A DNA stretch of 55,345 nt, from the IMG/VR virus record IMGVR_UViG_3300036816_000012, positions 1 through 55,345 of that record; one strand, written 5' to 3'. Origin of the DNA: a virus. The position numbers were made by a program, and so were the translations under genes. Under the pieces are notes generated by a model. That model was not told where the DNA came from. It did no database searches and saw only the letters and a list, made by a program, of their open reading frames with translations. This document shows positions 128-18,967 of this stretch, piece by piece. The number at the start of each line of letters is the position of its first letter. The first letter of the stretch is position 1.

Positions 128-1222
128 GAAGCTAAAAAGAAGACCATCGATAGTATTAATAACCTTTCCAAAGGTATACAAGATGCACTCAAGGCTAAGT
201 ACCAAGCTGAGAAAAAATTGGCCGAGGACGCCATAAAGGATCAGATCAGCGCGAACGAAGAGTGGAAGAAATCGCAACTCGACTCTATCAAGTCGGTTTA
301 TGACGCTCGCGTAGCTGCGGCACAGAAAGCGGCTGATGATGAAATAGCAGCCATCACAAGTGTAACCAACGCGCAGATTGCAGCGATACAGGCGCAGCTT
401 GACGCACTTGATAAAGCCGAGCAGCAACGGAGCCGGGCTGAGTTGGATGCAGACGATCAAAAGAAGATTGACCGTCTCAATGGAATGATTGAATACGAAC
501 ATGATGATTTCAACAAGGCACAGCTTCAGAAGGAACTAAACAAGGTCATAGCTGATCAGAACGAGCGCCATCGATTGGAACAACTCGCAGATACGAAAGA
601 AGCTCTTAAGGCAGAACAGGACGCCTTGAAAGTTAAACTCTCTGCTGAGACGCAGGCAATCAAGGATAATTTGGCTCTGAAAAAAGAAATCATGCAAGCC
701 GACTATGATGCAGATGTCGCCCGGATTAACGCTCTGTACGAGACGCAAAAAGCTTCGCTTAATGCACAGTTGGCCGAGACGCAGGCAACGTATGACAAGA
801 TGCTGGATGCCAAGAAGATCCAAGCTGAGGCTGAGAAGATGATTGTCCAAAACCAACAGGAAGACATCATTAAACTGCTTGACGGTTTTGGTGATGCGTA
901 CAACACAACTGGGCAAACACTCGGTGAAAAGATGTACCAAGGGTTTAAGGAAAAGGTTGATCAAATCCAGTCGCTTATTTCATCCATTAACGCTCAGATC
1001 GATGCTGCTAGAAGTTCGGCGGTATCTGCAATGAATGCAGTTAGTGGAGGCGGTGGTGGTGGAGGATCATCGTCAGGGGGCGGTTCATCAAGCAGCGGAA
1101 CGGAGACAAGGACTGCTGTCAAGGTTGAAGTCGTCAACCACTTTAATAGCAAGGTGACGTCTCCGAGTGATGTCTCCCGAGCTTCTCAACAAACAGCCCA
1201 ACGTCTCGCTTCGCAATTCTAA
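1..1222 (+). CDS. Tail tape measure protein, C-terminal part (continues 51983..55345 across the circular junction)
   Basis: Nt 1 is codon position 3 of the frame opened at 51983, the same frame as track ORF 62..1222. The sequence is coiled-coil Ala/Gln/Lys/Glu-rich, with a Gly/Ser tract at 1043-1099. The joined length is 4458 nt (1485 aa). Confidence 0.9.
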   Translation, partial: SRYSAQEKKDIEREVTEAIRVQTNERLNLARKYEEEKAKIDEEAKKKTIDSINNLSKGIQDALKAKYQAEKKLAEDAIKDQISANEEWKKSQLDSIKSVYDARVAAAQKAADDEIAAITSVTNAQIAAIQAQLDALDKAEQQRSRAELDADDQKKIDRLNGMIEYEHDDFNKAQLQKELNKVIADQNERHRLEQLADTKEALKAEQDALKVKLSAETQAIKDNLALKKEIMQADYDADVARINALYETQKASLNAQLAETQATYDKMLDAKKIQAEAEKMIVQNQQEDIIKLLDGFGDAYNTTGQTLGEKMYQGFKEKVDQIQSLISSINAQIDAARSSAVSAMNAVSGGGGGGGSSSGGGSSSSGTETRTAVKVEVVNHFNSKVTSPSDVSRASQQTAQRLASQF

Positions 1223-1234
1223 AGGAGGTGCATA

Positions 1235-2092
1235 ATGGAGACGGTCACGTTCACAAACTCGCGCGGGGAGAGTCTTTTTTTAGGCACTTCCAAACCGTTT
1301 TACATGACAAGTATCGAGGGCACGGGAGGCGCGCCTTCCGATCTCTTATCGACCAAATCACCGTACCAGGACGGAACGACATTTGTTGATATGATGTTGG
1401 CCAATCGACCTTTGAGTATTATTGGCGGGATCATAGCACCAACAAGGGAAAAAATGTACCAGTACCGCCGGGAATTTATGCGCATCCTCAACTCTAAACT
1501 TGGGTTGGGTACATTGGTATACACCAACTCATACCGCAGTTACGCTATACAAGCAGTGGTGGAGGGAACGCCTAATTTCGATGAACGGATTGTGACCAAT
1601 CAACCATTCACAATCAATTTTATTTGCCCGGACCCGTATTTTACGGATGTGTCTCCAATGTCTAAAGGGTTGAGGTTCGAAATAGGTGGTTTAATGTTCC
1701 CATTAGTGTTGCCTACCCAATTTGCAACAGCTTCATACGAGGCTTATTTCCAGAATGACGGGGATGTACCTACACCTGTCGAAATACATTACAAAGGTCC
1801 AGCTCTTAACCCGGTCGTAACCAATGAAACAACGGGGGAGTACATCAAAATAAAATATGATTTATCGGAAAATGATGTTCTGGTAATCAATACGGCATTT
1901 GGGCGTAAGAGGGTCGAGGTCGTCAACCCGGACGGCACAAGAACAAATGTATTCCATTGGATCGACCTCGGAAGTACGTTTTTCCAGCTCCAGGTCGGGA
2001 AAAACCTGCTCGTGTATAACAGCGACAGGGAGGGAGACAGAGCGATTGCAACAGTGGATATATTCTGGAATAACAGATACGGAGGTGGATGA
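1235..2092 (+). CDS. Distal tail protein (Dit-like, siphovirus tail family)
   Basis: A 285-aa ORF lies directly after the tape measure gene, with RBS aaaggaggtgcataATG. Its position and size fit Dit. Confidence 0.7.
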   Translation: METVTFTNSRGESLFLGTSKPFYMTSIEGTGGAPSDLLSTKSPYQDGTTFVDMMLANRPLSIIGGIIAPTREKMYQYRREFMRILNSKLGLGTLVYTNSYRSYAIQAVVEGTPNFDERIVTNQPFTINFICPDPYFTDVSPMSKGLRFEIGGLMFPLVLPTQFATASYEAYFQNDGDVPTPVEIHYKGPALNPVVTNETTGEYIKIKYDLSENDVLVINTAFGRKRVEVVNPDGTRTNVFHWIDLGSTFFQLQVGKNLLVYNSDREGDRAIATVDIFWNNRYGGG

Positions 2093-4231: not shown

Positions 4232-4683
4232 TGCCTGTTTTAGATACTTATGCACTTGATAACTATTCTATTGATGGTAGTTCGTCTGGCATATTAAGGG
4301 CTAAAGGGTCAGTTGTAGCAGGCCCAAATATCATTTCGTTTGAGTCGACAAATGGACCTGCGAATCTTTATCCGGCAGTTGTTAATGGGCTTGCTTTCAG
4401 GCCGAATGTGATCCTTCTTCAACGGTCTAGCGATCAACGGGATGTCACTACCTATAACCGAAACCCTGCTAATAGACAGCCTACGCCAGGAGGTCTATAT
4501 TACAATACCGCGTCGATACAAAACATGTCTTACACTAATTTTGTATGGGTTTATTTGTTCGAAACACAAGCTGCAGCTTCGTCTTCAGGAAGGGCCGGGT
4601 ATATTTCTAACAACACCTTCTTTTTACCAGTAACAGCAAGCACGACTTATGATTGGGAAGCATTATTTATACCTGATAACTAG
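4231..4683 (+). CDS. Hypothetical tail-module protein (150 aa)
   Basis: It makes a TAATG overlap with the preceding ORF. Confidence 0.6.
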   Translation: MPVLDTYALDNYSIDGSSSGILRAKGSVVAGPNIISFESTNGPANLYPAVVNGLAFRPNVILLQRSSDQRDVTTYNRNPANRQPTPGGLYYNTASIQNMSYTNFVWVYLFETQAAASSSGRAGYISNNTFFLPVTASTTYDWEALFIPDN

Positions 4684-4700
4684 AAGGGTGGCGAATTGAA

Positions 4701-5102
4701 GTGGAAGTCGGAAGAAAAATATATTATGAAAAGAACACTGGCAACGTCATTTTAAACACTGGCGAACGTTCGGGTGATGTAGTTCAAACCACGGACGAAG
4801 AAGACTTCTCCACATACTCTGCACTGGCTGAACGAGTCCCTGAAACAGTGGGTGTTATCCGACTTGAATATGGTGCGTTCGCGTCTGATTATACCGAGGG
4901 TGGAGTCATCACCCGAATCGATCTGAAAACAATGGAACCGCTATTCACTTATCCAGATCCAGTCGATCCAGAGACACCGCAAGAGCCACGTCCTGCACTC
5001 AGTAAACAAGTGGATATAATGCAGCAGGATAGTGGCGAGCTTAAACAAGCTGTAGCTGAACTGAGCCTTGCTCTTGCAGCAGTCATGGGAGGAGGTGAGT
5101 AA
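4701..5102 (+). CDS. Hypothetical protein (133 aa), possibly XkdW-like
   Basis: The ORF has a GTG start and sits between the tail and lysis genes, as xkdW does in PBSX-like elements. The similarity is only impressionistic. Confidence 0.45.
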   Translation: MEVGRKIYYEKNTGNVILNTGERSGDVVQTTDEEDFSTYSALAERVPETVGVIRLEYGAFASDYTEGGVITRIDLKTMEPLFTYPDPVDPETPQEPRPALSKQVDIMQQDSGELKQAVAELSLALAAVMGGGE

Positions 5103-5104
5103 CT

Positions 5105-5248
5105 ATGACATATACAAAAGATAGCGGCTTGGTGAAAGTGTGGGTTGGCCTTGTGATGACTGGAGTATATAAGGTCGATCAGGTGCCTTCGCTGTTTAAC
5201 TTGAAAGTTGTCGTGACGGAAGTTGTCAACGGTACAACATCGGCTTAA
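5105..5248 (+). CDS. Small protein (47 aa), XkdX-like position
   Basis: ATG lies 2 nt after the previous stop, giving MTYTKDSGLVKVWVGLVMTGVYKVDQVPSLFNLKVVVTEVVNGTTSA. The ORF is below the ORF-track cutoff. Confidence 0.4.
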   Translation: MTYTKDSGLVKVWVGLVMTGVYKVDQVPSLFNLKVVVTEVVNGTTSA

Positions 5249-5339
5249 CAGGCGTTCCGAAATCGGAGCGCTATTTTTGTGCCCTCTGGAGTGGTCAGGG
5301 GGCTTTTTAAATATTCAGATAGAGACGGGGGATTGGCGT

Positions 5340-5735
5340 ATGGAAGCCATACCAGGAGGTGTGAATGACATGCAGGTGCAGGATGTAAATACGATTGTCG
5401 ATTTGAAGGTACAACTGGCCCGGATTGAGGAAGCACTAAAGCCGTTGGCTGCTTTGGCTCCCGGCTTGGCCGAGGTCAGAGAAATAGCCAAAGAAGCATT
5501 GCAGGCGGTCCAGCAGTTGAATCTGCGAATTGTTGAACTAGAAGCTGAGTCGAAAAAGACAGCCGATGTTGCACACGAAGCCAAGCGCAATTCGGCAGAA
5601 GCATTGTCACGATTGGACAAGCATGACGAGGATCAAAAGTGGCTGAAACGTACGGTGTACGGAGCGGCGTTAACTGGAATAACTGGACTTCTTATTGCGG
5701 CAGTTTGGGCCGGGATCAAATTAGGGGGAATGTAA
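5340..5735 (+). CDS. XhlA-like membrane protein (lysis accessory)
   Basis: An internal ATG follows GGGGG (acgggggattggcgtATG). The protein has a coiled-coil body and a single C-terminal TM ('VYGAALTGITGLLIAAVWAGIKLGG'), directly upstream of the holin. Confidence 0.6.
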   Translation: MEAIPGGVNDMQVQDVNTIVDLKVQLARIEEALKPLAALAPGLAEVREIAKEALQAVQQLNLRIVELEAESKKTADVAHEAKRNSAEALSRLDKHDEDQKWLKRTVYGAALTGITGLLIAAVWAGIKLGGM

Positions 5736-5737
5736 TT

Positions 5738-5953
5738 GTGAATAAGAAATGGTGGCAAGCGGCAGGCGTTCGAGCTATCAAAACAGGGGCACAGGTGGCA
5801 ATTGGTGTCATCGGTGCAACTACTGTGTTTGCAGCAGTGGACTGGCGTGTAGTGGGCGGGACAGTCGTATTATCGGTAATCACAAGTCTGCTTACTAGCT
5901 TGGCCGGATTGCCGGAAGTAAGCAAAGGAGATGATGCAGATGCAAGCGCGTAA
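5738..5953 (+). CDS. Holin (r1t-holin-like)
   Basis: GTG follows GGGGGA. The 71-aa product 'WWQAAGVRAIKTGAQVAIGVIG...SLLTSLAGLP' has two TM segments and overlaps the endolysin start. Confidence 0.7.
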   Translation: MNKKWWQAAGVRAIKTGAQVAIGVIGATTVFAAVDWRVVGGTVVLSVITSLLTSLAGLPEVSKGDDADASA

Positions 5954-6800
5954 ACAGGGGAATGCTCAGGGTATCGACGTATCACATCACAACGGTAATA
6001 TCGATTTCAAAAAGGTGGCAGCTGACGGGATTTCCTTCGTCTTCATCAAGGCCACACAGGGTAAGTCCTTCCGGTCGCCCAAGTTTCTGCAATTTGTGAA
6101 GGATGCCAAGGCGGCTGGCCTACTGATCGGTGCATACCATTACGTAGATGACTCTGCTGGCAGCTTAGATGCCGCAAAGGCAGAAGCGCAGAATTTCTAC
6201 AGGGCCATTCAGGATGCTGGTGGGATTGGCGTGTTTGATTTACCGCCCGTGATGGACTATGAATCAAATAAAAACAGCTATAGCAAAGCGACGATTACGG
6301 CCGTAGCCAAGACATTTCTTGAAGAGATCCATAAGCTGACCGGAGTTAAACCGCTGGTGTATACATACCCGGCGTTCATCGGCAACTTTACGGGCTTGTC
6401 CTCATATCCGCTCTGGATTGCCAGATACAGCACGCAAACGCCTGCTGATGCTTCCGGCTGGACACGTTGGGACTTCTGGCAATATTCAGACGGATCAGCA
6501 GGGGCTTATCTGCCACGGGGAAACCGGAAGGTTGACGGGATTAGCGGAGCGGTGGACCTGAATGAATTTAACGGCACAGTAGCCGAGTTGAAAGCCAAAT
6601 ACAACAAAACGGTAAAGGAGGACAAGCCAGTGACACAGGAAAGAGACATTAACGTGCCAAGTAAGTGGGCGGAGACAGTCTGGAAGGAAGTAACGGAGAA
6701 AGGATTCTTCGATGGTACACGTCCAGGTGCAGCGGTTACTCGGGAGGAATTGGGTGCTGTGGTGAGCAGGATATTACGCTATGTTGATCAAAAAGGATAA
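5931..6800 (+). CDS. Endolysin, GH25 muramidase domain plus C-terminal domain of unknown type
   Basis: It carries 'GIDVSHHNGNIDFKKVAADGISFVFIKATQG' and 'PPVMDYE', typical GH25 lysozyme motifs. Confidence 0.85.
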   Translation: MMQMQARKQGNAQGIDVSHHNGNIDFKKVAADGISFVFIKATQGKSFRSPKFLQFVKDAKAAGLLIGAYHYVDDSAGSLDAAKAEAQNFYRAIQDAGGIGVFDLPPVMDYESNKNSYSKATITAVAKTFLEEIHKLTGVKPLVYTYPAFIGNFTGLSSYPLWIARYSTQTPADASGWTRWDFWQYSDGSAGAYLPRGNRKVDGISGAVDLNEFNGTVAELKAKYNKTVKEDKPVTQERDINVPSKWAETVWKEVTEKGFFDGTRPGAAVTREELGAVVSRILRYVDQKG

Positions 6801-6840
6801 CTGTGGTAGATTAAAATCAAATCCGAAAGAATCGGTGAAA

Positions 6841-6881
6841 AGAGCTCCGCTGGCATATCGCTGGTGGAGCTCTTTTTTTTT
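6841..6881 (+). terminator. Rho-independent terminator after the lysis cassette
   Basis: An 8-bp stem agagctcc/ggagctct is followed by a T9 run. Confidence 0.8.
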
Positions 6882-6893
6882 GAATATCGTCCC

Positions 6894-6924
6894 AAAACCA
6901 TCCGAAACCATCCGAAAACCATCC
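6894..6924. repeat. Three tandem ~10-11 bp units (a)aaaccatccg
   Basis: The sequence reads directly as aaaaccatccg aaaccatccg aaaaccatcc. Confidence 0.8.
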
Positions 6925-7034
6925 TGTGTTCCTGCCTAATGACAACCCCGTTAACCGGTTTAAGTAATAAAATAAATCATATATCAGAAGGAGGAGAATA
7001 CATATCTATAACGAATGATACTAATTAGAATTTA

Positions 7035-7062
7035 TTGACAAAAGTATTCCTTGAGTTAAAAT
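7035..7062 (+). promoter_or_regulatory. SigmaA-type promoter for the 7111-8602 operon
   Basis: TTGACA (7035-7040), a 16-nt spacer, then TAAAAT (7057-7062). Confidence 0.6.
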
Positions 7063-7110
7063 TAGCTTAGGTATTTATTACTACTAATTTAGCTGAAAAG
7101 GAAGAGTGTA

Positions 7111-7806
7111 ATGCAATTTTCAAGAGTAATTACAGAGATTAGATTCCAATCCTCGTTCTTTTTTGAAGAAGCTCGAGTTAAAAACGACATCAGCAACATG
7201 CTAGCTTCGGATTTTGTTCATCACGGCTATGACGAAAACCAAAAAGCTCTGTATTTCCTGAATGGAACTCACAACAAGAAGCTTGTCGTTACTAAAGGAA
7301 ACATAGTGATCGATATTGATAACCCTGAAGAACTTAGCGAAGTTGTTCTAATGGGCGATCACTACATACAAAAAATACTAAACAAACTTCAAGTACAACA
7401 AACAGAGAGAATTGGTGTAAGATCTCACATTATATCCGATGAGATTGAAGGCGTAGAAAGAGTGAGTTCTAAAATCGCCGAACAATTTTTCAACCGAGAT
7501 TTAGTACAGTTTCTACGTAATCATAAAACTGACGAGCAATTTATTCCTACGTTAAGTTTTAACGCGAAACTGAACCATGAAATTTACATGACAACAAATG
7601 TTGGAGCTCATCAAGAAGCATCAGGAGTAGCCGACAGCCAAGGAAATGTTAAAAGTATAACAATTAACAAAGCTCATCCATCCCTTGATATTGATATGTA
7701 TATGGGTGTTCCTAAAAAGCCAGATCAGGTTGCTGGAGCTGTTAAAGGTTTAATCAGTCATGTCGAAGATCAACAAAATAAAATTTGGTCCTTGGGAGGA
7801 ACTTAG
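7111..7806 (+). CDS. Hypothetical protein (231 aa), soluble; N-terminus reminiscent of the TIGR04255 family
   Basis: RBS aaaaggaagagtgtaATG. The gene is AT-rich. 'VITEIRFQSS' resembles the family N-terminal motif (weak, from memory). Confidence 0.6.
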   Translation: MQFSRVITEIRFQSSFFFEEARVKNDISNMLASDFVHHGYDENQKALYFLNGTHNKKLVVTKGNIVIDIDNPEELSEVVLMGDHYIQKILNKLQVQQTERIGVRSHIISDEIEGVERVSSKIAEQFFNRDLVQFLRNHKTDEQFIPTLSFNAKLNHEIYMTTNVGAHQEASGVADSQGNVKSITINKAHPSLDIDMYMGVPKKPDQVAGAVKGLISHVEDQQNKIWSLGGT

Positions 7807-8310
7807 ATGTCGATTCCCTTGAATACCGAATTTAGGCCAAGAAACCGACTAGGGACTTCCAGCATAGACTTACAAGAAGTTTTGGGTGGAGATAATGGGA
7901 AATTAGGTATAATCAACAGCGGCAACATAGACGGCACTCCAGAAGAGATTTTCACAGGATCTTTGAGAAAATCAAACTTCTCGGAATTCGTAAATCCGCT
8001 GGAGACAGCCAGTATTGTGGTTAATAACGAACATGGATTAATGAAAGTAACAAAAGTATCGGTTGAAGAAGAAATAAGGAGGGCAAAAATGGCTATGAGT
8101 AAAGAACTTATCGCGTATCAATATTATTCATCTGTAGGTTGGATATTCGCGGTAGCACTTACTATTTTCGTGGTCTGTGGGATTGTTGGAGCTTTAGGTC
8201 CATTGTCCACTTTTACTGGTTCACTATTTTCATTAGTGGGTGCCCTTGGAGCTATCTTAAACTGGAAGGGTTGGAAAGAAAAGAATGCTGATCAATCTAA
8301 GTTTGAGTAA
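7807..8310 (+). CDS. Hypothetical membrane protein (167 aa; soluble N-domain plus 2 C-terminal TM helices)
   Basis: GGGAGG lies upstream and ATG immediately follows the previous TAG. The TM stretch is 'VGWIFAVALTIFVVCGIVGALGPLSTFTGSLFSLVGALGAIL'. Confidence 0.65.
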   Translation: MSIPLNTEFRPRNRLGTSSIDLQEVLGGDNGKLGIINSGNIDGTPEEIFTGSLRKSNFSEFVNPLETASIVVNNEHGLMKVTKVSVEEEIRRAKMAMSKELIAYQYYSSVGWIFAVALTIFVVCGIVGALGPLSTFTGSLFSLVGALGAILNWKGWKEKNADQSKFE

Positions 8311-8602
8311 CATTCCAACCGAACCATCAAACGGAAATCCTTTAGTCGAGGTAACAAAAGAAGTTGTGAAACACGCCAAATTAACTAAGAGTATGTGGCT
8401 TTTTGTACTTGGTAATCTAATAGTGCTAATAGCTTTTTTCACGGTTTTTTTCTTACCAAAACCTCTTTCTTATATTGGTATTACTCCGTTAGACGTAAGG
8501 ATTGCGTTTTTTATCTTTATAGGCATGGATGTTCTAGTCTTCTTGTCTTATGTTTTTGCGGAAATATTTATTAACCATAAACATGGCAGAGGATTTAAAT
8601 GA
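8285..8602 (+). CDS. Hypothetical membrane protein (105 aa, 2 TM)
   Basis: It overlaps the previous ORF by 26 nt. The RBS is weak and the start is uncertain (alternative ATG 8396). Confidence 0.5.
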   Translation: MLINLSLSNIPTEPSNGNPLVEVTKEVVKHAKLTKSMWLFVLGNLIVLIAFFTVFFLPKPLSYIGITPLDVRIAFFIFIGMDVLVFLSYVFAEIFINHKHGRGFK

Positions 8603-8613
8603 TGATATTAAAG

Positions 8614-8649
8614 GAGCCCAGCGACATAAGTCGACGAGCTCTTTTTGTT
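8614..8649. terminator. Hairpin plus T-run between convergent genes
   Basis: An imperfect 12-nt inverted repeat gagcccagcgac/gtcgacgagctc is followed by ctttttgtttt. Confidence 0.55.
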
Positions 8650-9015
8650 TTATCTACTCAATTTATACAGACAGTATTGATTCAGTGAAACACTCTCGGC
8701 AGCGGCCCGCTCCACCAATTGCCGGTGCAGACTCCGTGGTACGCGCAAATTGAATTTACCGCTGTACTCATCGTCACCGATCGGCTCAGGAATGACGTCT
8801 CCATATTCTAACTTTACCGCCAGGTGTCCCTCCATAGCTTCCCGAACACTCTCGTATGCTTCAGCAAAGGTATCTCCGTTGCTTTGGCACCCATCTAATT
8901 CCGCAACAGTTGCGAAGAAATAGTCACCGCTCTCGTCTTTAACGGGTCTGATCTGTATCGTATACGGGAGGGCCATGTAATACGCTAAATCCTTATTTTG
9001 GCTATGATTTGCCAT
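8650..9015 (-). CDS. hicB: HicB-family antitoxin (N-terminal HicB fold plus C-terminal RHH)
   Basis: It carries 'YFFATVAELDGCQSNGDTFAEAYESVREAMEGHL' and a C-terminal 'FNLRVPRSLHRQLVERAAAESVSLNQY', and lies downstream of hicA. Confidence 0.85.
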   Translation of the reverse strand: MANHSQNKDLAYYMALPYTIQIRPVKDESGDYFFATVAELDGCQSNGDTFAEAYESVREAMEGHLAVKLEYGDVIPEPIGDDEYSGKFNLRVPRSLHRQLVERAAAESVSLNQYCLYKLSR

Positions 9016-9060
9016 TATTATTCGGCTAGGATATCATGTGGATTAAGGAAAGGGGAGGTG

Positions 9061-9285
9061 CTACTCCCCGATCCGGTCCAGTACGTCTTTGACGTATGCC
9101 GCCTTTAGTGGTTGTTCCTTTTTGATGGTTATCAAGTCTCCTGCTTGGTTTCGGAAATGGAAGTGCGAACCGTTGCTTCTCACTAATTCATAACCGTGAT
9201 GCCGGAGTACCTTGGCAACTTCATCATATTGGATTCCACTGGGGCGGTCTTTCATTTTTTGGACCAATTTTTCTATCCTAGCCAT
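9061..9285 (-). CDS. hicA: HicA-family mRNA-interferase toxin
   Basis: The 74-aa product contains 'VLRHHGYELVRSNGSHFHFRN'. RBS AGGAGGTGAGAC precedes the ATG. Confidence 0.85.
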   Translation of the reverse strand: MARIEKLVQKMKDRPSGIQYDEVAKVLRHHGYELVRSNGSHFHFRNQAGDLITIKKEQPLKAAYVKDVLDRIGE

Positions 9286-9298
9286 GTCTCACCTCCTA

Positions 9299-9322
9299 CA
9301 TATATAGTACCATATATAGTAC
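9299..9322. repeat. Perfect 12-bp tandem direct repeat catatatagtac x2, immediately upstream of the hicA RBS
   Basis: Read directly from the sequence. It is a candidate HicB operator and/or -10 region. Confidence 0.8.
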
Positions 9323-9447
9323 TAATGAACAAGGTGCTTATTTGTCCGAGTTAATATAGCTTTAAATCGGTACTTGCATTACCCGATCTAGTCGTATTAA
9401 AATAATTTGGTAGGTTCCCGAGGAGCTACCCAAGAAGGGTTAACTTA

Positions 9448-9555
9448 ATGAAGCAACATCGTTCAAAGAGAAGTTTTATGGAGTGGGCTTGGATAAAATT
9501 GGTTACTGTGCTATCGTTTAAAGTGATTTTGGAGGTTTTAGAGTTATTTAATTAA
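9448..9555 (+). CDS. Possible small peptide (35 aa, MKQHRSKRSFMEWAWIKLVTVLSFKVILEVLELFN)
   Basis: It is the only ORF in a 470-bp intergenic gap. The SD is weak (gaaggg, 8 nt upstream) and a strong hairpin lies downstream. Confidence 0.25.
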   Translation: MKQHRSKRSFMEWAWIKLVTVLSFKVILEVLELFN

Positions 9556-9755: not shown

Positions 9756-10427
9756 TTAACCTACTTCATTAATTAAACCCTCATTGTTATTCCGTACATT
9801 GCCGACTTCCTTCGGCACTTCGTATGCTCTCATTTCAGAAGCCTGATACGGCTTAAGCAGACTGAGTAAAGACTGAACATCATCATTATCTTTTCCTAGC
9901 CATTCTGCCTCATCTTCAGGCCGTAAAATAACCGGCATACGATTGTGGATGTCTTCCATCAGACTATTTGGTTCAGTTGTAATGATAGTACATGTGCTCA
10001 GCTTGTTTCCGTCGGGATCTGTCCAGGTATCATATAGGCCAGCCAATGAAAATATGCTGTCGTCCTTCATCAGAATTCGCATAGGTCGCTTAGCAGTTCC
10101 TTCTTTCTTCCATTCGTAAAATCCATTCGTCGGGATAATACAACGTTTGGAGCTGATCAGGCGTTTAAAAGCTGGCTTCTCTGCTAGTGTCTCGGCCCTG
10201 GCGTTAATCATCTTATTTCCGATCTTGTCATCCTTGGCCCACACAGGCACCAGACCCCATCGGAGTGAGCCCAATCGATTACCGTCTTTACTACCAATAA
10301 TTGTGGGAATAAACTGCATGGGTGCTGCATTGTAATTAGGTTTGTACTCAAATCCGTCTGCAATAGATGCATAGTACCTGTCCATTATAGCCTCTATAGG
10401 GTCAGTGATCGTAAATCTACCACACAT
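9756..10427 (-). CDS. SOS-response-associated peptidase (SRAP/YedK/YoqW family)
   Basis: The true start ATG is 8 nt after AGGAGG and gives 'MCGRFT', with the catalytic Cys2. The track start is a GTG inside the RBS. Confidence 0.85.
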   Translation of the reverse strand: MCGRFTITDPIEAIMDRYYASIADGFEYKPNYNAAPMQFIPTIIGSKDGNRLGSLRWGLVPVWAKDDKIGNKMINARAETLAEKPAFKRLISSKRCIIPTNGFYEWKKEGTAKRPMRILMKDDSIFSLAGLYDTWTDPDGNKLSTCTIITTEPNSLMEDIHNRMPVILRPEDEAEWLGKDNDDVQSLLSLLKPYQASEMRAYEVPKEVGNVRNNNEGLINEVG

Positions 10428-10463
10428 ACAAAGCACCTCCTGTATTGTCTTTACAATATATAA

Positions 10464-11321
10464 TCACACGATAAATTGATCAAACACGGGTATACGTAGT
10501 AAGCCGGATTTGGTCCAGTTCCGCATCTTGACCCTGGCTTGTATCTTCGGTTCCAGGTACACATAATCATTATCTTGGCCTGTTACGAGTTGCTGGCATA
10601 CACCGCGGAATGCCTGCTTATGCTTTTGATTTGGGCCATGCTCAATTATTCCTGCTGGTCGAAGCCTGCCGGACAGATCGGGCACAGCAGCAAGCCATCC
10701 GAATTCAGTTTTTCGATACCCAGTGATATAAACATCGGCGTATGACCAGTTAATGACCTTCATCCAGTCTCGGGAACGTCTGCTAACGTACTGGCTGTCC
10801 TTACGCTTGCCGACTACACCCTCCATACCCATAGCCTCTATCTGAGCGTATAGGTCCTCTCCTGCGCCTTCTATATGGGGCACAACTCCAAAGTTAGAGG
10901 AAGGAAGAGATAGACTGTGTAGGATCATCTTGCGTTCCATAAGAGGTAGCTTACGGAGATCCTGTCCTTTGTACTGCAGAATATCGAATATGGCGAACGT
11001 GGCTGGCAATGTCTTGGTGAGCTGCTGAACCTTTGAGTGTTGCCGAGTGCTGAACCGGCTCATGACTGCCTCAAAGTCATTCAATCCTGTCAGTGGATCG
11101 GTGCAAGCGACCTCTCCGTCAAGAATGATGTCAGAGCCAAAGGGAAGCGACAATTCAGGGTACTGTTGGGTACAATCGTTATTGTGACGTGTATATAACC
11201 GGATTTCTCCAGCTTGTTGCGAATATATCAACCGGTGTCCGTCAACTTTCGGTTCGAAAATGTAATCCGAATGTGAGAAGGGAACTGGCGATGTCTCAAG
11301 TAACATTGGGGATATAAACAT
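10464..11321 (-). CDS. ATP-dependent DNA ligase (LigB/LigD-ligase-domain-like)
   Basis: It carries the KxDG adenylation motif 'EPKVDGHRL'. The start ATG is 7 nt after GAGGTG ('MFISPMLLE'). Confidence 0.8.
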   Translation of the reverse strand: MFISPMLLETSPVPFSHSDYIFEPKVDGHRLIYSQQAGEIRLYTRHNNDCTQQYPELSLPFGSDIILDGEVACTDPLTGLNDFEAVMSRFSTRQHSKVQQLTKTLPATFAIFDILQYKGQDLRKLPLMERKMILHSLSLPSSNFGVVPHIEGAGEDLYAQIEAMGMEGVVGKRKDSQYVSRRSRDWMKVINWSYADVYITGYRKTEFGWLAAVPDLSGRLRPAGIIEHGPNQKHKQAFRGVCQQLVTGQDNDYVYLEPKIQARVKMRNWTKSGLLRIPVFDQFIV

Positions 11322-11384
11322 AAAAAAACACCTCAACCCAATTATAGCGTTTTGCCATAAAGGATTGAGGCGGTAAGTTATGGG

Positions 11385-11663
11385 TTATTGATTTTCTTTC
11401 CCGTTGATGTAGGCGGATTTGATAATACTCATGCAACTATCAATCGTACATGGATCAGATCCAGAAAGCCACGCAACTGTATCTAGTTCTTCTTTTGTTA
11501 ATTCACGACCAATACAATCTTGGGTTGATCCAAGGAAGCGTTTATACTGCTCAAGCTGCCATTCTTCCATCAGTAACCCATCTGGCCTATAAGGCCTTGC
11601 TAGATCAACTACAAGCCACTCAGCACGACCGCGACTATTTATGCCTTTATATTGTAAGTCCAT
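11385..11663 (-). CDS. Hypothetical protein (92 aa)
   Basis: It is packed in the minus-strand operon. Confidence 0.55.
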   Translation of the reverse strand: MDLQYKGINSRGRAEWLVVDLARPYRPDGLLMEEWQLEQYKRFLGSTQDCIGRELTKEELDTVAWLSGSDPCTIDSCMSIIKSAYINGKENQ

Positions 11664-11667
11664 TCAA

Positions 11668-12123
11668 TCACTCTCCTTGTTCAAAAATAAATTCCACCAA
11701 CGTACCATCCGGGTAATCCTCTAACTGATTTCCTACCCAGCTGCCAGCGCCTCTGTTATCCGATGGACTTATGTATTCGATATCTGCTCCTTCTCCGCCT
11801 TCAGCACACATTGCCATAGGCCATTCATCACGATCATAGCCCTTCTTCGTGTCTATGCCTCTCAGTGACTCTTTGCGGTTCTCCTCTGCTCCTTCACGGT
11901 CAATGGTACATGTAGCGGGATGACCACTATCTACGGCGTCCTGGATGTGTTTGGCTGTCTCTGGATAGCGATCAGCAGGAAAGATAAGTTGTACAGTTGA
12001 TTTTTCCTGTTGTGTTACAGGTGCTATTTCTTTTGGTGAGTCTCCTGAATCCTGTTCATTCCAACTTAGAATCGATACAGCAATTATTATGGCTAATGCT
12101 AATGGTACAATGAGCTTTTTCAT
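11668..12123 (-). CDS. Secreted NucA/NucB-type DNase
   Basis: The ATG after GGGAGG gives an N-terminal signal/anchor 'MKKLIVPLALAIIIAVSIL'. It also carries 'DRYPETAKHIQDAV' and 'YDRDEWPMAMCAEGG'. Confidence 0.75.
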   Translation of the reverse strand: MKKLIVPLALAIIIAVSILSWNEQDSGDSPKEIAPVTQQEKSTVQLIFPADRYPETAKHIQDAVDSGHPATCTIDREGAEENRKESLRGIDTKKGYDRDEWPMAMCAEGGEGADIEYISPSDNRGAGSWVGNQLEDYPDGTLVEFIFEQGE

Positions 12124-12141
12124 TCTACAACCTCCCAATTA

Positions 12142-13100: not shown

Positions 13101-13385
13101 ATGTTAACGGATTATCAACGAAAGGTCCTACGGATCTTGTACAACTACAAAGGTGGGCGGCGTAGGTTTCCTACAATCCACGAACTAACGGTTAAAACAG
13201 GCAAGCATAAACCGGATGTCATGGCTGCTCTGGACGCTCTTGTGGCTGCTGAATACATACATTGGGATGATAAGTCGGACACTGCCAACATCGTCATTTT
13301 AGAAGGCTGGGAGCGTGAAGGTGAACGACCTAAGGTTGACCGCACACCACCGTCTGGAAACATCGACTATTGGACTGAATATTAA
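13101..13385 (+). CDS. Winged-helix DNA-binding protein (94 aa)
   Basis: ATG follows GAGGTG. 'YQRKVLRILYNY...FPTIHELTVKTGKHKPDVMAALDALVAAEYI' is LexA-N/MarR-like. Confidence 0.5.
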   Translation: MLTDYQRKVLRILYNYKGGRRRFPTIHELTVKTGKHKPDVMAALDALVAAEYIHWDDKSDTANIVILEGWEREGERPKVDRTPPSGNIDYWTEY

Positions 13386-13398
13386 GGAGGCGTTTATC

Positions 13399-13731
13399 AT
13401 GCGTAGTAGACTTGAGGGAAACGGATTGTACGAATCGTCCAGAATGATTATGCCGGAGCACAGAGAGGCTTGGTTAGCTCAATGTGAGCAGCAGGAGAGA
13501 CGGGGAAAGCCAGTATTAGACGAGCAAGAGTATCAGCGAATTGGGGAAGTGCTGACCGACTCTTATAATAGAAGTAGTACGATTGATTTGGTATTATTTA
13601 ACCCTTTCTATGACGAACCGTTGTCGGGTGTGGTCGTAGGTTTAAATTCATCACGGCGTGAAGTCAAGTTGATGTTAGATGAAGAATTCCGTTGGATCTC
13701 TTTAGCTGAAATTATCTCTGTAAATGAGTGA
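13399..13731 (+). CDS. YolD-like protein
   Basis: ATG follows TAAGGAGG. 'MIMPEHREAW...' with a C-terminal beta-rich half resembles the YolD/YqjX family. Confidence 0.6.
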   Translation: MRSRLEGNGLYESSRMIMPEHREAWLAQCEQQERRGKPVLDEQEYQRIGEVLTDSYNRSSTIDLVLFNPFYDEPLSGVVVGLNSSRREVKLMLDEEFRWISLAEIISVNE

Positions 13732-13797
13732 ATTTGTATGAATTTGGCTATGGAATTGCCAACTAATCATCTATAATATTGGTATACGATATTATAG
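13729..13797 (+). promoter_or_regulatory. Activator-type promoter candidate for the agr-like cassette
   Basis: TGAATTTG occurs at 13729 and 13739, and TGGAATTG at 13751. TATAAT lies at 13772-13777 with no good -35 hexamer. A 9-bp inverted repeat ctataatat/atattatag spans 13771-13797. Confidence 0.45.
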
Positions 13798-13812
13798 GAT
13801 GGTGCGCGTGGG

Positions 13813-14442
13813 ATGCTTGAATCAATCGGATTCATGTTTTTTTCTACATTAGAGACATTTTCTTGGTACTTATTAAGTATGTCATTGTTTCGTTATAAGC
13901 CTTATGAGCACACTTGGTCAGCTCTCTTTGTGATTTTGCTTATGAACCTTCAAAGTTTCGTTTTAAGAAATGAATTATCAATGTCTTCATATGCACCATT
14001 GATAAGTATGTTGATATTCATATTTTTCTATGCGGTTGTGGTGAAGATTCCCCTGATTGGATCTCTCATTATAACGTTGGCTGGGTTCGCGGGATTTGGT
14101 TTAGTGCAAGCCGGTCTAGTTTTTGTTTTATTTGGTTCAATTGAAGCAGCTCAATCTTCTCTAAGCAATGGTTACGCTCTTCAGACGGCCACAGCTATAG
14201 TTGTTTTCATATTGGCTAGAGTCCCATACAGGTTTGGATATGGCATACCGCTGGAGTTTGAAAAGCTAAAATTTAAATTTGAAGAAATTTTAACAAGTGT
14301 ACTAATGATCATATTCTTATGTGTGATCTCAGGAGTCCTTTACTACAATAATTTGTGGATACTTATATTTTTGTTTGCTTGCACATTAGGATACTTACTT
14401 TACTTCTCAGCTAAAAAAGATCGGAGTACATGGAATGATTGA
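13813..14442 (+). CDS. Polytopic membrane protein (209 aa, ~6 TM), AgrC-sensor-like or LytTR-system membrane inhibitor; no kinase domain
   Basis: The protein is entirely hydrophobic helices. It is translationally coupled to agrB through the overlap ATGATTGA. Confidence 0.65.
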   Translation: MLESIGFMFFSTLETFSWYLLSMSLFRYKPYEHTWSALFVILLMNLQSFVLRNELSMSSYAPLISMLIFIFFYAVVVKIPLIGSLIITLAGFAGFGLVQAGLVFVLFGSIEAAQSSLSNGYALQTATAIVVFILARVPYRFGYGIPLEFEKLKFKFEEILTSVLMIIFLCVISGVLYYNNLWILIFLFACTLGYLLYFSAKKDRSTWND

Positions 14443-14959
14443 GAATATCTCACAACGTCTCGCTATTGGGTTGAAGAAACGTGTACCTGATCACCCTTCA
14501 TCGGCAGATATATTTCGGTTTACGATTGCTGCAATAATAAATACCGTAGCTATAATTCTCTTAACCTTACTTATTTCGTTTTTCACAAATAAGACAAATG
14601 AAATTATTATAATACTCATTTCATTTGCCGTTCTCAGAATAGTGTCTGGTGGTATACACTTAAAGTCAGGAGATAAATGTGTACTAGCAACAACAGCACT
14701 TTTCACAGGTATCTCTTTTGTGAGTATAACGTATGAATACATTTTACTATTAAATATACTGAGTCTATTGCTGGCCTTTTTATACGCTCCATCAAGGATT
14801 GAAAATCAATCTAAAATTGACCCAAAACACTATCCGAAGTTAAAGGTAGTGTCGATAATAATAATAGCAACAAACTTTTTGTTTATGTCGTCAGTACTTG
14901 CAGCAGTATTTTTTGTACAATGTCTAACTTTGATTAAGATGAAAGGGGTGAAAAAATGA
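14435..14959 (+). CDS. agrB: AgrB-family AIP-processing membrane peptidase
   Basis: 'RIVSGGIHLKSGDKC' has His and Cys 7 residues apart, as in S. aureus AgrB H77/C84. It also has a 'LYAPS...K' motif and multiple TM helices. Confidence 0.8.
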   Translation: MIENISQRLAIGLKKRVPDHPSSADIFRFTIAAIINTVAIILLTLLISFFTNKTNEIIIILISFAVLRIVSGGIHLKSGDKCVLATTALFTGISFVSITYEYILLLNILSLLLAFLYAPSRIENQSKIDPKHYPKLKVVSIIIIATNFLFMSSVLAAVFFVQCLTLIKMKGVKK

Positions 14960-15084
14960 AAACGAGTTATTTGTACAGTATAGCAACTGGATTGACTACA
15001 ATTGCTGGGTTAATTGTTTCTGCTGCGAGTGTGCTTTTTATTTACCAAGGCGATACACCAAAAGAATTGTTGGAGAAAAAGTAA
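14956..15084 (+). CDS. agrD: AgrD-like autoinducing-peptide precursor (42 aa)
   Basis: The product is MKTSYLYSIATGLTTIAGLIVSAASVLFIYQGDTPKELLEKK. It has a hydrophobic N-helix and a charged C-tail with PKEL. It makes an ATGA overlap with agrB and is preceded by RBS GGGGTG. Confidence 0.7.
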   Translation: MKTSYLYSIATGLTTIAGLIVSAASVLFIYQGDTPKELLEKK

Positions 15085-15102
15085 ATGTAATGAGGTGATC
15101 AT

Positions 15103-15519
15103 GTGTATGAACTAGAATACCTGGCCGTATCTAAAGAGAGGGATGGGGAAACAGGTGGTATGAATGTACCCGTTAAGAATGTAACCCACCTAGAAGCAGA
15201 TACATACATGGTAATTGTCCATACTGCAAAAGATCAATACTATCTAATGGGAACAATGGTTTACTGGGTAAAGACGTTAAACGCCAGTGGATACAATTTC
15301 AGAAATGCTGACCGTAGTAGTATTATTAATGTAGATAATATCGCGTCAGTCGACATGAGTTTTAAAGTGGCATACTTCGAAGATGATATAAACAAACATT
15401 CTAAGAAGTGTACTTTAACCGTGGATAGATTGAATAAGATTATAGATGAATTCCCGCAGTTGGCATATAAGTGTAATTCGAGGATGCTGCTTAAAAGAAT
15501 GTTACGTTTCAACAGATAG
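15103..15519 (+). CDS. Stand-alone LytTR-domain DNA-binding protein (138 aa, no receiver domain)
   Basis: The GTG start follows GAGGTG. 'VTHLEADTYMVIVHTAKDQYYLMGTM...GYNFRNADRSSIINVDNIASVD' matches the LytTR pattern. Confidence 0.7.
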   Translation: MYELEYLAVSKERDGETGGMNVPVKNVTHLEADTYMVIVHTAKDQYYLMGTMVYWVKTLNASGYNFRNADRSSIINVDNIASVDMSFKVAYFEDDINKHSKKCTLTVDRLNKIIDEFPQLAYKCNSRMLLKRMLRFNR

Positions 15520-15542
15520 TCGCTGATGCGGCTATTTTTTTT
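15517..15542 (+). terminator. Rho-independent terminator after the agr-like cassette
   Basis: The stem tagtcgc/gcggcta (one G-U pair) is followed by a T8 run. Confidence 0.7.
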
Positions 15543-15712
15543 AACTAGGCAAACTTACCATAAATAGGATGAAAAGTATGTCGAATCATGTTGTCGAAAG
15601 TGTTGATTTCGCCCGGCGAATTAACATTTACAAGTTATGGGATATGTTATTTAATTAAACCAGAAGGAAGTAAATTAAGGAAAGAGAGTTGAATCAAATG
15701 AAGTGGTGTTAG

Positions 15713-15737
15713 GATGAGTACTATATTAGTACTCATC
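15713..15737. repeat. Perfect 10-bp inverted repeat gatgagtact-atatt-agtactcatc
   Basis: Read directly. A second small palindrome, cgcggt-taa-accgcg, follows it. Confidence 0.8.
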
Positions 15738-15766
15738 TGACCGGGGGAGCGCGGTTAAACCGCGAC

Positions 15767-16000
15767 TTACTTCTGAACGTCCCACTCGTACAATTGCTCC
15801 ATCTGGATGCTCAATATCATTGCAGCCAAGTACATGGCTTCAACGGGCATTGAGCGTTGACTGGTGGCAAAAAACGATACCATTCGTTTGGACCAACCAG
15901 TACGAAGGGCGAACTCGGCTTGAGTCATTTCGCGGTGGTCAAGCCAGTACTGAAGTAAGCATCTCCCTCGGGTAACTTTCACCGTAGAGCGCTCCTTCAA
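15767..16000 (-). CDS. XRE-family HTH protein (77 aa)
   Basis: 'MTQAEFALRTGWSKRMVSFFATSQRSMPVEAM' is an HTH_3-like sequence. Confidence 0.6.
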   Translation of the reverse strand: MKERSTVKVTRGRCLLQYWLDHREMTQAEFALRTGWSKRMVSFFATSQRSMPVEAMYLAAMILSIQMEQLYEWDVQK

Positions 16001-16573: not shown

Positions 16574-18064
16574 TCAGTAAATAATCAGTTTGTCTCTATA
16601 TTTTTTCGTCTCACTAGGTTGAATCTTTCTAACCTCTCCCCATTTGAAATGAACTTCAGCTGGTGCTCCTGGAACAATCTTTTCTACTAAGAACTCGATC
16701 GATATTCGTTTAGCATCATCTGGGATGATTTCGATAAGGTCTGAAAATTCTTGAATAGCATCTCCAAAGTCGCCAAACTTTTTAGATTGTGGAAGCGGAG
16801 CTTTACTCAAAAGGTCCATGATTTCTAACTTCCGTTTCCCGTATCGACTTGTTGACCTCTCGTATTGATCTTCTGTAATTTTGTTATGCAGATAATAATC
16901 GTCGAATATTTTTTGTTCTGCTCTGTTGATGTTCGATAATTCATCTTGTAATTTAGAGAAGGAGTTAGATTCTTGTTTTTCTCCATCCATCTCCGATAGC
17001 ACTGATTGAAATCCATATTTATTTTCTGCCATTTCACTAATTAGTTTTATGACTGCATCATTCAAGGTGTTTTGGTCGTAGTTAGGACTTTGGCATTTCC
17101 CAAGTGATGTCTTTCTGTTACAAACATATTTTCTCCGATCTTTCTTTGAAGAGAAATGACGAGAGTGCATTTTAGATCCGCACTCTGGACAAATAAGCAT
17201 AGAGGTTAACAACTGCCGCTGTTTACCTTTCCAAGCTTTTTCTTTTCCGAATAATGTAGATTGGATATAAATGAAGGTATCCCAATCGACTATAACTGGA
17301 CAATTAGCCAACGGGTAAAATTTATCTTTCCATTTCTGCTTGGCAGCATAGGTAGGATTAGTAAGCATATACCTAACCCTTCGAGCGCTCCATTCTTTCC
17401 CCGTTTCACTTGGTACCTCGTTATCATTTAACCATCGAGCTATAAGGTAAGGTCCCTTACCAGAGAGAGCCATCTCAAATGCTTTCCTCACGTAAATTGA
17501 CTTTTCAAAAACCTCTTCGAACCCATTCTCTATTTTTTTTAGACCAAATGGTGGAGGGCCGCCATTCCAGCGCCCTTTCTCAGCGTTGGTCCTTTTGTTT
17601 TCATTCATTATTTCGCTTAGGTTGTCTGAATAGTATTCGTTGAGGTCGACAAAGAAACCGGCTATAAGACGCCCGTTTGGTGTGCTGAAGTCCACAGCTT
17701 CAGAAGCTGAACAGATATCAATTTGATGTGTTTTAAGGATCTCGTATAGTTTTTGAAAGTCTTTTTTCAAACGGGTTAGCCTAGAGAGGTTGAAAAATAC
17801 AAACTTTTTGACAGAATCACGTTCTTCAATAAACTGAAGTGCTTCCATTAGTCCAGGTCGTTTGGTGTAATCAATCCTAAAACCTGAATAGTCAATATCT
17901 TTAAACACTTTGACAAGCTTATAGCCGTTAAACTCACAAAACTGCTCTATTTTTCTTAATTGAGTTAGCTCTGAAATATCCTCTTTGTCCTGTCTTTGAT
18001 CACTTTGACGGATATAAGCGATCGCTTCAACGACTTGGTTTCTTTCATCGCGGGCAGCTAACAT
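16574..18064 (-). CDS. int: Large serine recombinase (integrase)
   Basis: The 496-aa product has an N-terminal resolvase motif 'AYIRQSDQRQ', a recombinase domain, a zinc ribbon 'CPECGSKM...YVCNRK' and a coiled-coil C-terminus. Confidence 0.9.
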   Translation of the reverse strand: MLAARDERNQVVEAIAYIRQSDQRQDKEDISELTQLRKIEQFCEFNGYKLVKVFKDIDYSGFRIDYTKRPGLMEALQFIEERDSVKKFVFFNLSRLTRLKKDFQKLYEILKTHQIDICSASEAVDFSTPNGRLIAGFFVDLNEYYSDNLSEIMNENKRTNAEKGRWNGGPPPFGLKKIENGFEEVFEKSIYVRKAFEMALSGKGPYLIARWLNDNEVPSETGKEWSARRVRYMLTNPTYAAKQKWKDKFYPLANCPVIVDWDTFIYIQSTLFGKEKAWKGKQRQLLTSMLICPECGSKMHSRHFSSKKDRRKYVCNRKTSLGKCQSPNYDQNTLNDAVIKLISEMAENKYGFQSVLSEMDGEKQESNSFSKLQDELSNINRAEQKIFDDYYLHNKITEDQYERSTSRYGKRKLEIMDLLSKAPLPQSKKFGDFGDAIQEFSDLIEIIPDDAKRISIEFLVEKIVPGAPAEVHFKWGEVRKIQPSETKKYRDKLIIY

Positions 18065-18851: not shown

Positions 18852-18967
18852 ATTTTACTAAACGTTGCAGTAAAAAGTCAACATTATTTTTGCGTTTACT
18901 ATTGACTGGAACGTTTTTAGCGTTTAGTATTTACTTAACGGCAACGTTCACTAATCACTAAACGGTG
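18852..18967. promoter_or_regulatory. Lysis-lysogeny switch: divergent promoters plus 5 operator half-sites A(C/G)T(A/G)AACGnn
   Basis: The rightward promoter is TTGACT (18902-07), a 17-nt spacer, then TAGTAT (18925-30). The leftward promoter is TTGACT (rc of 18876-81), an 18-nt spacer, then TAAAAT (rc of 18852-57). Half-sites start at 18857, 18891 (rc), 18919 (rc), 18941 (rc) and 18957. Confidence 0.6.

Follow-up and report, generated by a model that had tools for sequence, protein, structure and literature searches.

A mobile three-gene operon beside the lysis genes of Paenibacillus-like prophages, tentatively an exclusion or abortive-infection module

We describe a three-gene operon in the virus record IMGVR_UViG_3300036816_000012, analysed over its full 55,345 nt (the window), which is the genome of a complete temperate Paenibacillus phage. 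The genes, here g1, g2 and g3, encode an acidic cytoplasmic protein and two small membrane proteins and lie where the original prediction had placed them, between a lysis cassette that ends in a GH25 endolysin gene and the hicB/hicA pair downstream. The trio is an insulated, mobile, selected operon, and we are highly confident that it forms an autonomous promoter-genes-terminator unit with the anatomy mapped below. No component belongs to any known family; the logic of the unit, a moron that combines a soluble protein with membrane proteins, is already known. We tentatively propose, at somewhat less than even confidence, that the trio may act as a prophage exclusion or abortive-infection (Abi) module, analogous to RexAB or AbiZ and not homologous to them. 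The features of the cassette, in window coordinates, are these:

6605 to 8609, plus strand: exchanged DNA block, 88-90 % identical by blastn to two prophages of P. amylolyticus CP121451 (L001 and L002, at 156-177 kb and 1.74-1.76 Mb).
6837 to 6877, plus strand: intrinsic terminator of the late/lysis operon, an 18-bp stem followed by T9, from a terminator scan; the upstream insulator of the trio.
6890 to 6924, plus strand: 11-nt tandem repeat TCCGAAAACCA, 3.3 copies by TRF, between the lysin terminator and the trio promoter.
7035 to 7062, plus strand: SigA/sigma-70-type promoter, TTGACA-16-TAAAAT, scoring 11/12.
7111 to 7806, plus strand: g1, open reading frame (ORF) of 231 aa, acidic cytoplasmic protein.
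7807 to 8310, plus strand: g2, ORF of 167 aa, membrane protein.
8285 to 8602, plus strand: g3, ORF of 105 aa, membrane protein.
8610 to about 8654, plus strand: bulged hairpin followed by TTTTTGTTTT, the probable trio terminator, from folding.

Three tightly packed reading frames with a promoter of their own had been predicted from the bare sequence, and both features are confirmed. The start codon of g2 comes immediately after the stop of g1, the g2 and g3 frames share 26 nt, and the promoter is the best promoter-like site across positions 6500-9500 in a site scan. That interval holds 7 such sites against 6.6 +/- 2.5 in shuffled sequence, which is no excess, so a lone site would be little proof; the promoter at 7035-7062 is credible because it is conserved in distant loci. 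The hairpin and T-run expected after the trio is present but bulged, and the bulge explains why a strict terminator scan missed it. Positions 8596-8665 fold at -19.7 kcal/mol (z = -4.3, with 0 of 200 shuffles as good), and the terminator sits back to back with the end of hicB, whose stop lies at 8650 on the minus strand. The TCCGAAAACCA repeat is found nowhere else in the window and differs in copy number between relatives, with 3.3 copies in the window, 3 in L001 (~9085-9120) and 8 in L002 (~9030-9120). Its unit equals one helical turn, which suggests either a phased protein-binding array or simple slippage.

The AT-rich composition noted at the outset is borne out by full counts. The G+C fraction of the trio is 0.371 (0.30-0.36 at third codon positions), compared with 0.502 in the endolysin gene and 0.478 in hicB on its two flanks and 0.437 in the whole window. 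Only 2.4 % of same-size stretches of the window reach a value as low, and one other region alone, at ~13.35-15.9 kb, matches it. The same deviation accompanies the unit elsewhere: in seven loci with measurable flanks the trio has a G+C of 0.29-0.37 against 0.40-0.48 upstream, the unit in L014 has 0.28 against 0.49 in its flank, and at every locus with measurable flanks the unit lies 7-15 G+C points below the upstream genes.

The position of the unit is constant. In 11 of 11 informative loci it adjoins the gene that ends the lysis cassette; the lysin families concerned are unrelated to one another, and the unit is kept across loci in which g1 is only 25-39 % identical. The lysis genes found beside g1 in these loci are as follows:

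Window: GH25.
L001 and L002: r1t holin and Amidase_3.
L004: Amidase_2 and a 186-aa ORF, similar by eye to the holin_6_1 ORF of L006.
L005: holin_4_1 and Amidase_2, then an insertion sequence.
L006: holin_6_1 upstream; Amidase_2 convergent downstream.
L009: BhlA, holin_5_2 and Phage_lysozyme.
L011: Amidase_2 and a 147-aa ORF.
L012: holin_4_1 and Amidase_2.
L014: Amidase_3 and a 107-aa ORF with three hydrophobic segments.
L015 (P. polysaccharolyticus): an amidase-like ORF, by eye, and a 92-aa hydrophobic ORF.

The trio keeps together as a unit from locus to locus, a result that leaves the exclusion idea of the original prediction unrefuted. Homologous g2 genes lie downstream of g1 in L001/L002, L004, L005, L006, L010, L011 and L012, and partners of the same architecture in L009 and L014; g1 and g2 abut or overlap wherever both are present. 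Homologues of g3 overlap g2 by 8-26 nt in L001/L002, L004, L005, L009, L010, L011 and L012. The partners also vary: L006 is without g3, the g2 of L009 extends to 287 aa, L013 carries a 238-aa tail-anchored coiled-coil protein and L015 a single 263-aa protein with several membrane-spanning segments. Judged from these variants, g1 is the constant component, and its partner is always membrane-anchored with a cytoplasmic head. Such exchange of partners is a typical trait of sensor/effector conflict systems.

Control elements recur together with the genes. The gap upstream of g1 measures 243-368 bp in the nine loci measured and usually contains a hairpin with T-run and a TTGACA promoter. A hairpin and T-run equivalent to the upstream terminator occurs in L004, L009, L010 and L012; L011 has no convincing upstream hairpin. 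TTGACA together with a -10 element (TAAAAT or TGnTACATT/TGnTAAATT) aligns in 7 of the 8 loci compared, L010 having TTGACT, and the L006 promoter is weaker at 9/12. The distance from the end of the -10 element to the ATG is 48-55 nt in seven loci and 72 nt in L005, and a strong hairpin with T-run follows the last gene in L001, L004, L009, L010 and L011. The complete layout of terminator, TTGACA promoter, ~50-nt leader, operon and terminator recurs in L004, L005, L009, L010, L011 and L012. The L006 unit and the amidase gene are convergent, and this orientation argues that the unit is not simply part of the late transcript. In L005 the insertion sequence, with a DDE_Tnp_1 transposase gene at 4312-5469 on the minus strand, is inserted exactly between the lysin gene and the g1 promoter.

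Beyond these loci the family is rare. A tblastn search with g1 and three relatives against 50,697 phage records found none, GenBank phages and plasmids gave no match at DNA or protein level, a metagenome scan was likewise empty, and an IMG/VR search gave no additional locus; a genome scan with a sub-alignment of six g1 sequences added one new locus. The trio thus appears, from sequence comparison, to be accessory and is missing from sequenced Paenibacillus phages with related head genes. The prediction of a promoter-gene-terminator unit of foreign composition is upheld by its deviant composition, its recurrence across loci and its lack in these related phages.

Comparison with L001 and L002 indicates both selection and exchange. 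The ratios of nonsynonymous to synonymous substitution (dN/dS) are 0.08 for g1, 0.17 for g2 and 0.12 for g3, with dS of 0.12-0.57, and by this measure all three genes are under purifying selection. The shared block begins within the 3' end of the lysin gene, at 6605, and extends 7 nt beyond the g3 stop, to 8609; the catalytic domains of the lysins are not the same, GH25 in the window and Amidase_3 in L001 and L002. A shared block next to different catalytic domains shows that the block has been exchanged between phages, and 6605-8609 is the apparent unit of exchange. The promoter and 5' untranslated region show 1 mismatch in ~85 nt and are, set against the dS values, better conserved than synonymous sites. 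The stem of the upstream terminator carries a compensatory A:T to G:C change in L001 and L002.

Two further observations concern these prophages. The holin region (5025-5942) and the last ~65 lysin codons, from 6605, stay homologous to L001 and L002 despite the swap of the catalytic domain, and the conserved C-terminal part of the lysin is SLH-like by eye. The trios of L001 and L002 encode identical proteins within one genome, while their tail-fibre genes and flanks differ, and this identity suggests that the co-resident prophages have recently recombined or undergone gene conversion.

The family of g1 is small and divergent. Among 1.84 billion cluster representatives, an exhaustive HMMER search detected 29 proteins at E <= 1e-3, of which 21 reach E <= 1e-20. 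These 21 share 25-39 % identity and measure ~223-250 aa, except for one 142-aa fragment; the best full-length homologues reach E 1e-49 at 39 % identity. Ten family clusters were looked up, and all ten are singletons from metagenome or read-archive assemblies. A word-indexed protein search returned only the window's own protein for g1 and one 92 %-identical P. amylolyticus relative for g2. An alignment of 20 g1 sequences has G102, D195 and K202 invariant, nearly invariant positions that include E13, F18, D20, R104, P146, P190, D193, Q206 and G209, and the motifs RIGVR, P-x-x-D-L-D and PK-x-P-x-Q-I-N-G. The protein is acidic (isoelectric point 5.9; family median 5.7).

An AlphaFold2 model of g1 built with the family alignment has a mean predicted local distance difference test (pLDDT) score of 91.3 and a predicted template modelling score (pTM) of 0.84. 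Its secondary structure runs beta-alpha-beta4-alpha, then beta-alpha-beta3-alpha, and the model is confidently read as two tandem repeats like those of TATA-box-binding proteins (TBPs). In a Foldseek search of the PDB, TBPs rank first, archaeal and eukaryotic ones alike (E ~2e-5, probability 1.0), followed by AdoMetDC and, far lower, by EspG chaperones (E 5e-3, probability 0.33); the best match in BFVD is A0A515MGR4, an unnamed 202-aa viral protein (E 1.6e-9, TM-score 0.52-0.58). Against TBP, however, the TM-score is 0.27-0.38, with a root-mean-square deviation of ~10-13 A over ~230 columns and 9-12 % sequence identity. The low TM-score despite the high probability argues that g1 shares the repeat topology of TBP and not its global arrangement, the two halves being arranged otherwise. 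Membership of g1 in the TBP family was considered and rejected for want of a global superposition and of a Pfam TBP match, and because g1 is acidic; TBP-like DNA binding would likewise be unlikely, given an acidic family and the poor superposition of the model. The likeness to the basic TBPs is accordingly one of fold, not of family or of DNA binding.

The N-terminus of g1 had originally been said to recall the uncharacterised family TIGR04255. At superfamily level this may stand, by way of distant relatives (17.7-27.2 bits); for the window's own g1 it does not, the NCBIfam hidden Markov model giving no match at E <= 1. The profile TIGR04255.1 has 252 positions and a curated cutoff of 30 bits, which no member of the g1 family attains. 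Sub-threshold matches were obtained for 2 of 20 core g1 members, for core member P0031 and for 4 of 6 weak relatives (E 3e-6 to 2.4e-3). Those of the weak relatives are colinear at 18.3-27.2 bits (P0028 27.2, E 3e-6; P0030 23.1; P0023 20.3), and P0028, P0030 and P0023 cover most of the profile with proteins of similar length, while the P0031 match (17.7 bits) is limited to the N-terminus. We conclude that the g1 family is probably tied to TIGR04255 remotely, at superfamily level only. That family is sporadically distributed and itself without assigned function, and a literature search for it and its synonyms found no paper in the searchable library that mentions it; a search for TBP-like folds in phage defence also returned no papers. 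When 20 g1 relatives were searched against Pfam, NCBIfam, PADLOC and PHROGs, the weak TIGR04255 signal was the only yield and no match was consistent across members; g1, g2 and g3 themselves stayed at noise level in the four libraries, and PDB sequence searches with g1, g2 and g3 profiles gave nothing.

The membrane proteins have the topology originally predicted, a head followed by two C-terminal transmembrane helices in g2 and two transmembrane helices in g3. In g2 the hydrophobic helices span ~109-130 and 137-151 (AlphaFold2 models 86-130 and 133-163), and a cytoplasmic head that varies and is probably disordered leads into a conserved juxtamembrane helix (EEEIRR...), the transmembrane hairpin and a W-K/E-K-N tail. 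The AlphaFold2 model of g2, built from two sequences, is poor (pLDDT 47) and was not used for a fold search. Across its family g2 keeps a juxtamembrane motif, E-[HY]-G..K..S.E[ED]E[VI][RQ][RQ] or VKEAI..YK, the hairpin and a W-[EK]-K tail, while the head is highly variable and total length ranges over 129-287 aa. In g3 the helices lie at ~37-57 and 73-95, after a cytoplasmic N-terminus of ~36 aa with P-x-EP and AKLTK motifs and before a basic tail; its family retains P-x-EP, [AG]K[LF][TS], the hairpin and the basic tail. Both proteins have basic residues before the first helix and after the second, and outside loops of only 6-15 residues, features that predict both termini inside and scarcely anything exposed. 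So little exposure speaks against a masking of receptors and is compatible with an effector embedded in the membrane or with a block to entry.

Neither membrane protein could be assigned to a family. Searches of Pfam gave only transmembrane-segment noise for the g2 family (nine members; for example DUF2207_C in 3 of 9) and the g3 family (eight members; for example PspC in 2 of 8). A profile comparison showed no paralogy between g2 and g3, and tblastn of the three trio proteins against the window revealed no paralogues and no likeness to the window's r1t-type holin. As a description only, g3 and the C-terminal 80 aa of g2 have the features of class II holins: they are small, with two transmembrane helices, both ends inside, a charged tail and a place beside the endolysin gene. 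No holin family in Pfam or PHROGs was matched consistently, the single match of one g3 member to Phage_holin_3_6 (E 0.083) being noise.

Three kinds of known system bear comparison with the trio. Lambda RexA/RexB and Rex-like exclusion pairs such as Sbash gp30/gp31, expressed from a prophage as the trio probably is, resemble it, by analogy of architecture only, as sets of soluble and small polytopic membrane proteins encoded side by side, with a proposed logic that leads from sensor to depolarising effector. RexA is a protein of 279 aa or longer with an RdgC-like split-domain fold and a basic DNA-binding patch (PMC11077077). In contrast, g1 is acidic with a double TBP-like fold, and the top 50 PDB fold matches listed for its model include neither a RexA nor an RdgC chain. 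The trio has two separate proteins of two transmembrane helices and lies after the lysis genes, whereas Rex lies in the immunity region; RexB has four transmembrane segments. With phage morons, such as the HK97/HK022-type promoter-gene-terminator insertions and the conversion region between lysin gene and attachment site in Firmicutes prophages, the trio shares a promoter and terminator of its own, deviant composition, presence or absence among related phages and a location where the late operon ends. Morons are mostly single genes scattered over varying sites, while the trio is a three-gene operon that holds one fixed position and anatomy across very divergent phages. Class II holins and AbiZ of Lactococcus, a membrane protein that makes infected cells lyse too early, recall g3 and the C-terminal part of g2 as small proteins with two transmembrane helices, cytoplasmic ends and a basic tail, encoded next to the endolysin. 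The trio differs in that it matches no holin family, has a separate promoter and accompanies recognised holins; homology to AbiZ was checked through PADLOC only, and nothing was found. None of the papers retrieved on lysin-adjacent prophage genes and Paenibacillus morons describes the module.

Under the exclusion reading, host RNA polymerase would transcribe the near-consensus trio promoter in the lysogen, an expectation that derives from the lack of a phage-repressor operator motif at this promoter. An operator-like motif, CGTTTASTA or its complement, occurs five times at 18854-18964 in the repressor-cro intergenic region, and these copies are probably CI operators; a motif scan found none of this type in the trio promoter region (6800-7110), and control of the trio by the phage repressor, which we considered, was set aside on this ground. 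The trio is thus probably expressed in lysogens. Its genes would be translated together and, as their translational coupling suggests, the products may form a complex that reaches from cytoplasm to membrane. As the cytoplasmic partner, g1 could sense a cue of the superinfecting phage or hold g2 and g3 inactive; once triggered, these would damage or depolarise the membrane or block DNA entry. A narrower version, which we regard as doubtful, makes the trio an unrecognised prophage Abi/exclusion system in which g1, as a remote TIGR04255 branch with a double TBP-like fold, gates or chaperones holin-like effectors with two transmembrane helices and, from its station right behind the lysis cassette, may hijack or pre-empt the lysis clock of the superinfecting phage.

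Several observations weigh against an exclusion function. That no known defence family is present was already suspected: g1, g2 and g3 have 0 matches at E <= 1 among 5027 PADLOC models, 20 g1 relatives give only isolated matches at E >= 0.02, and g2 and g3 show no SLATT, holin or other effector family above noise. Co-occurrence in defence islands had been put forward as a check; the family was never seen in a chromosomal defence island and occurs only in phage lysis-cassette neighbourhoods, so that an argument from defence-island enrichment is unavailable. Strict adjacency to lysis genes suits a role in lysis equally well. Expression in lysogens is deduced from sequence, contact of g1 with g2 and g3 is suggested by gene coupling, and the g2 model is poor, as noted. 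The family is also tiny and hardly found outside Paenibacillus-like prophages, an uncommon pattern among successful defence systems. On the other side, none of the three proteins matches a non-defence family in Pfam or NCBIfam, and the original idea is not refuted on this count either.

Two other functions compete with exclusion. The trio might serve lysogenic conversion or addiction, with toxin-antitoxin-like g2 and g3 neutralised or chaperoned by g1, with immunity to holin-like bacteriocins, or with modulation of the host membrane or of sporulation physiology. We consider this unlikely; the toxin-antitoxin variant would share its logic with SpoIISA/SpoIISB beside PBSX in B. subtilis. It is favoured by the moron anatomy with a probably constitutive promoter, the co-translated soluble-plus-membrane architecture and the hicAB pair adjacent in three loci, and the weak likeness of the g1 fold to EspG-type beta-sheet chaperones would suit a protein that holds hydrophobic helices. 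That likeness is, however, below a reliable level, no SpoIISA, toxin-antitoxin or immunity family in Pfam or NCBIfam is matched, there is no independent sign of toxicity, and undecayed retention in two co-resident prophages fits any selected function. A lysis-accessory module, which we judge quite unlikely, would act as an antiholin or lysis-timing regulator, as a second holin-like pair under g1, or as protection from premature lysis, with late read-through or its own promoter boosting it late in the lytic cycle. In its favour, the unit stands beside the last lysis gene whatever the endolysin (GH25, Amidase_2, Amidase_3, Phage_lysozyme) or holin family, with other accessory genes farther away; g2 and g3 have the size, two-helix topology and basic tails of class II holins, L006 has Phage_holin_6_1 directly upstream in the same orientation, and the DNA block exchanged with P. 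amylolyticus takes in the 3' end of the lysin gene. Yet a strong terminator and a consensus promoter of its own split the unit from the lysis operon in most loci, in L006 it converges on the amidase gene, it lies ~10 G+C points off the lysis genes in every locus measured, and it is missing from all sequenced Paenibacillus phages with related head genes. Every carrier, moreover, already has canonical holin and endolysin genes, and no holin or antiholin family is matched.

The last alternative, chance ORFs in an AT-rich spacer, has next to no probability. It would account for the failure of all three proteins to match any database family, but the dN/dS values of 0.08-0.17, full-length g1 homologues to E 1e-49, a confident g1 fold (pLDDT 91) and the retention of g2/g3 partners and overlaps in distant loci contradict it, and selection and conservation together exclude this reading.

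If the trio does act in defence or exclusion, it would represent a new architecture in the prophage immunity of spore-forming Firmicutes, a TBP-like-fold partner with swappable small membrane effectors, and would supply the first testable function for TIGR04255 relatives. Should it prove a lysis accessory, phages of Gram-positive bacteria would gain a new class of lysis regulator. The rarity and narrow host range of the family limit its general importance; its fixed position, insulated unit and size of 1.6 kb ease cloning and testing.

An exact 127-bp direct repeat at the window ends (1-127 and 55219-55345) indicates a circular assembly and hence a complete phage genome of ~55.2 kb. The terminase, portal and capsid genes are ~64 % identical in DNA to those of Paenibacillus larvae phages, and the head genes match ~100 Paenibacillus phage records. 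Upstream of the trio lie an XhlA-like gene, the r1t-type holin gene and the GH25 endolysin gene. Downstream and convergent, hicB/hicA occupy 8650-9285 on the minus strand, followed by a further minus-strand block at 9756-12138 with a SRAP peptidase, an ATP-dependent DNA ligase and a NucA/NucB-like gene. A large serine integrase gene (16574-18064) and an S24 CI-type repressor gene (18097-18843) come after these, and with this gene order the trio is the first accessory unit after the late operon, in the stretch that leads to the integration/immunity module.

Some of these neighbours recur. In three loci that otherwise diverge, a hicB/hicA pair is encoded on the strand opposite the trio and not far downstream: it converges directly in the window and stands a few ORFs off in L004 (12239-12888) and L009 (10815-11465). 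The ligase and the nuclease-like gene also directly follow the g1 module in L015 (7518-8889, minus strand). Other accessory genes near the unit elsewhere are YolD/LexA-like, AgrB and Abi_alpha genes; the Abi_alpha gene of L012 lies within the tail-fibre region (987-1796, minus strand). In the short contig L013, an ORF at 1913-2401 downstream of a distant g1-like pair has a GIY-YIG-like N-terminal motif by eye and is possibly a homing endonuclease. The second AT-rich island of the window, at ~13351-15900 with a G+C no higher than in the trio, carries plus-strand ORFs at 13813-14442, 14435-14959 and 15103-15519 and could be another moron.

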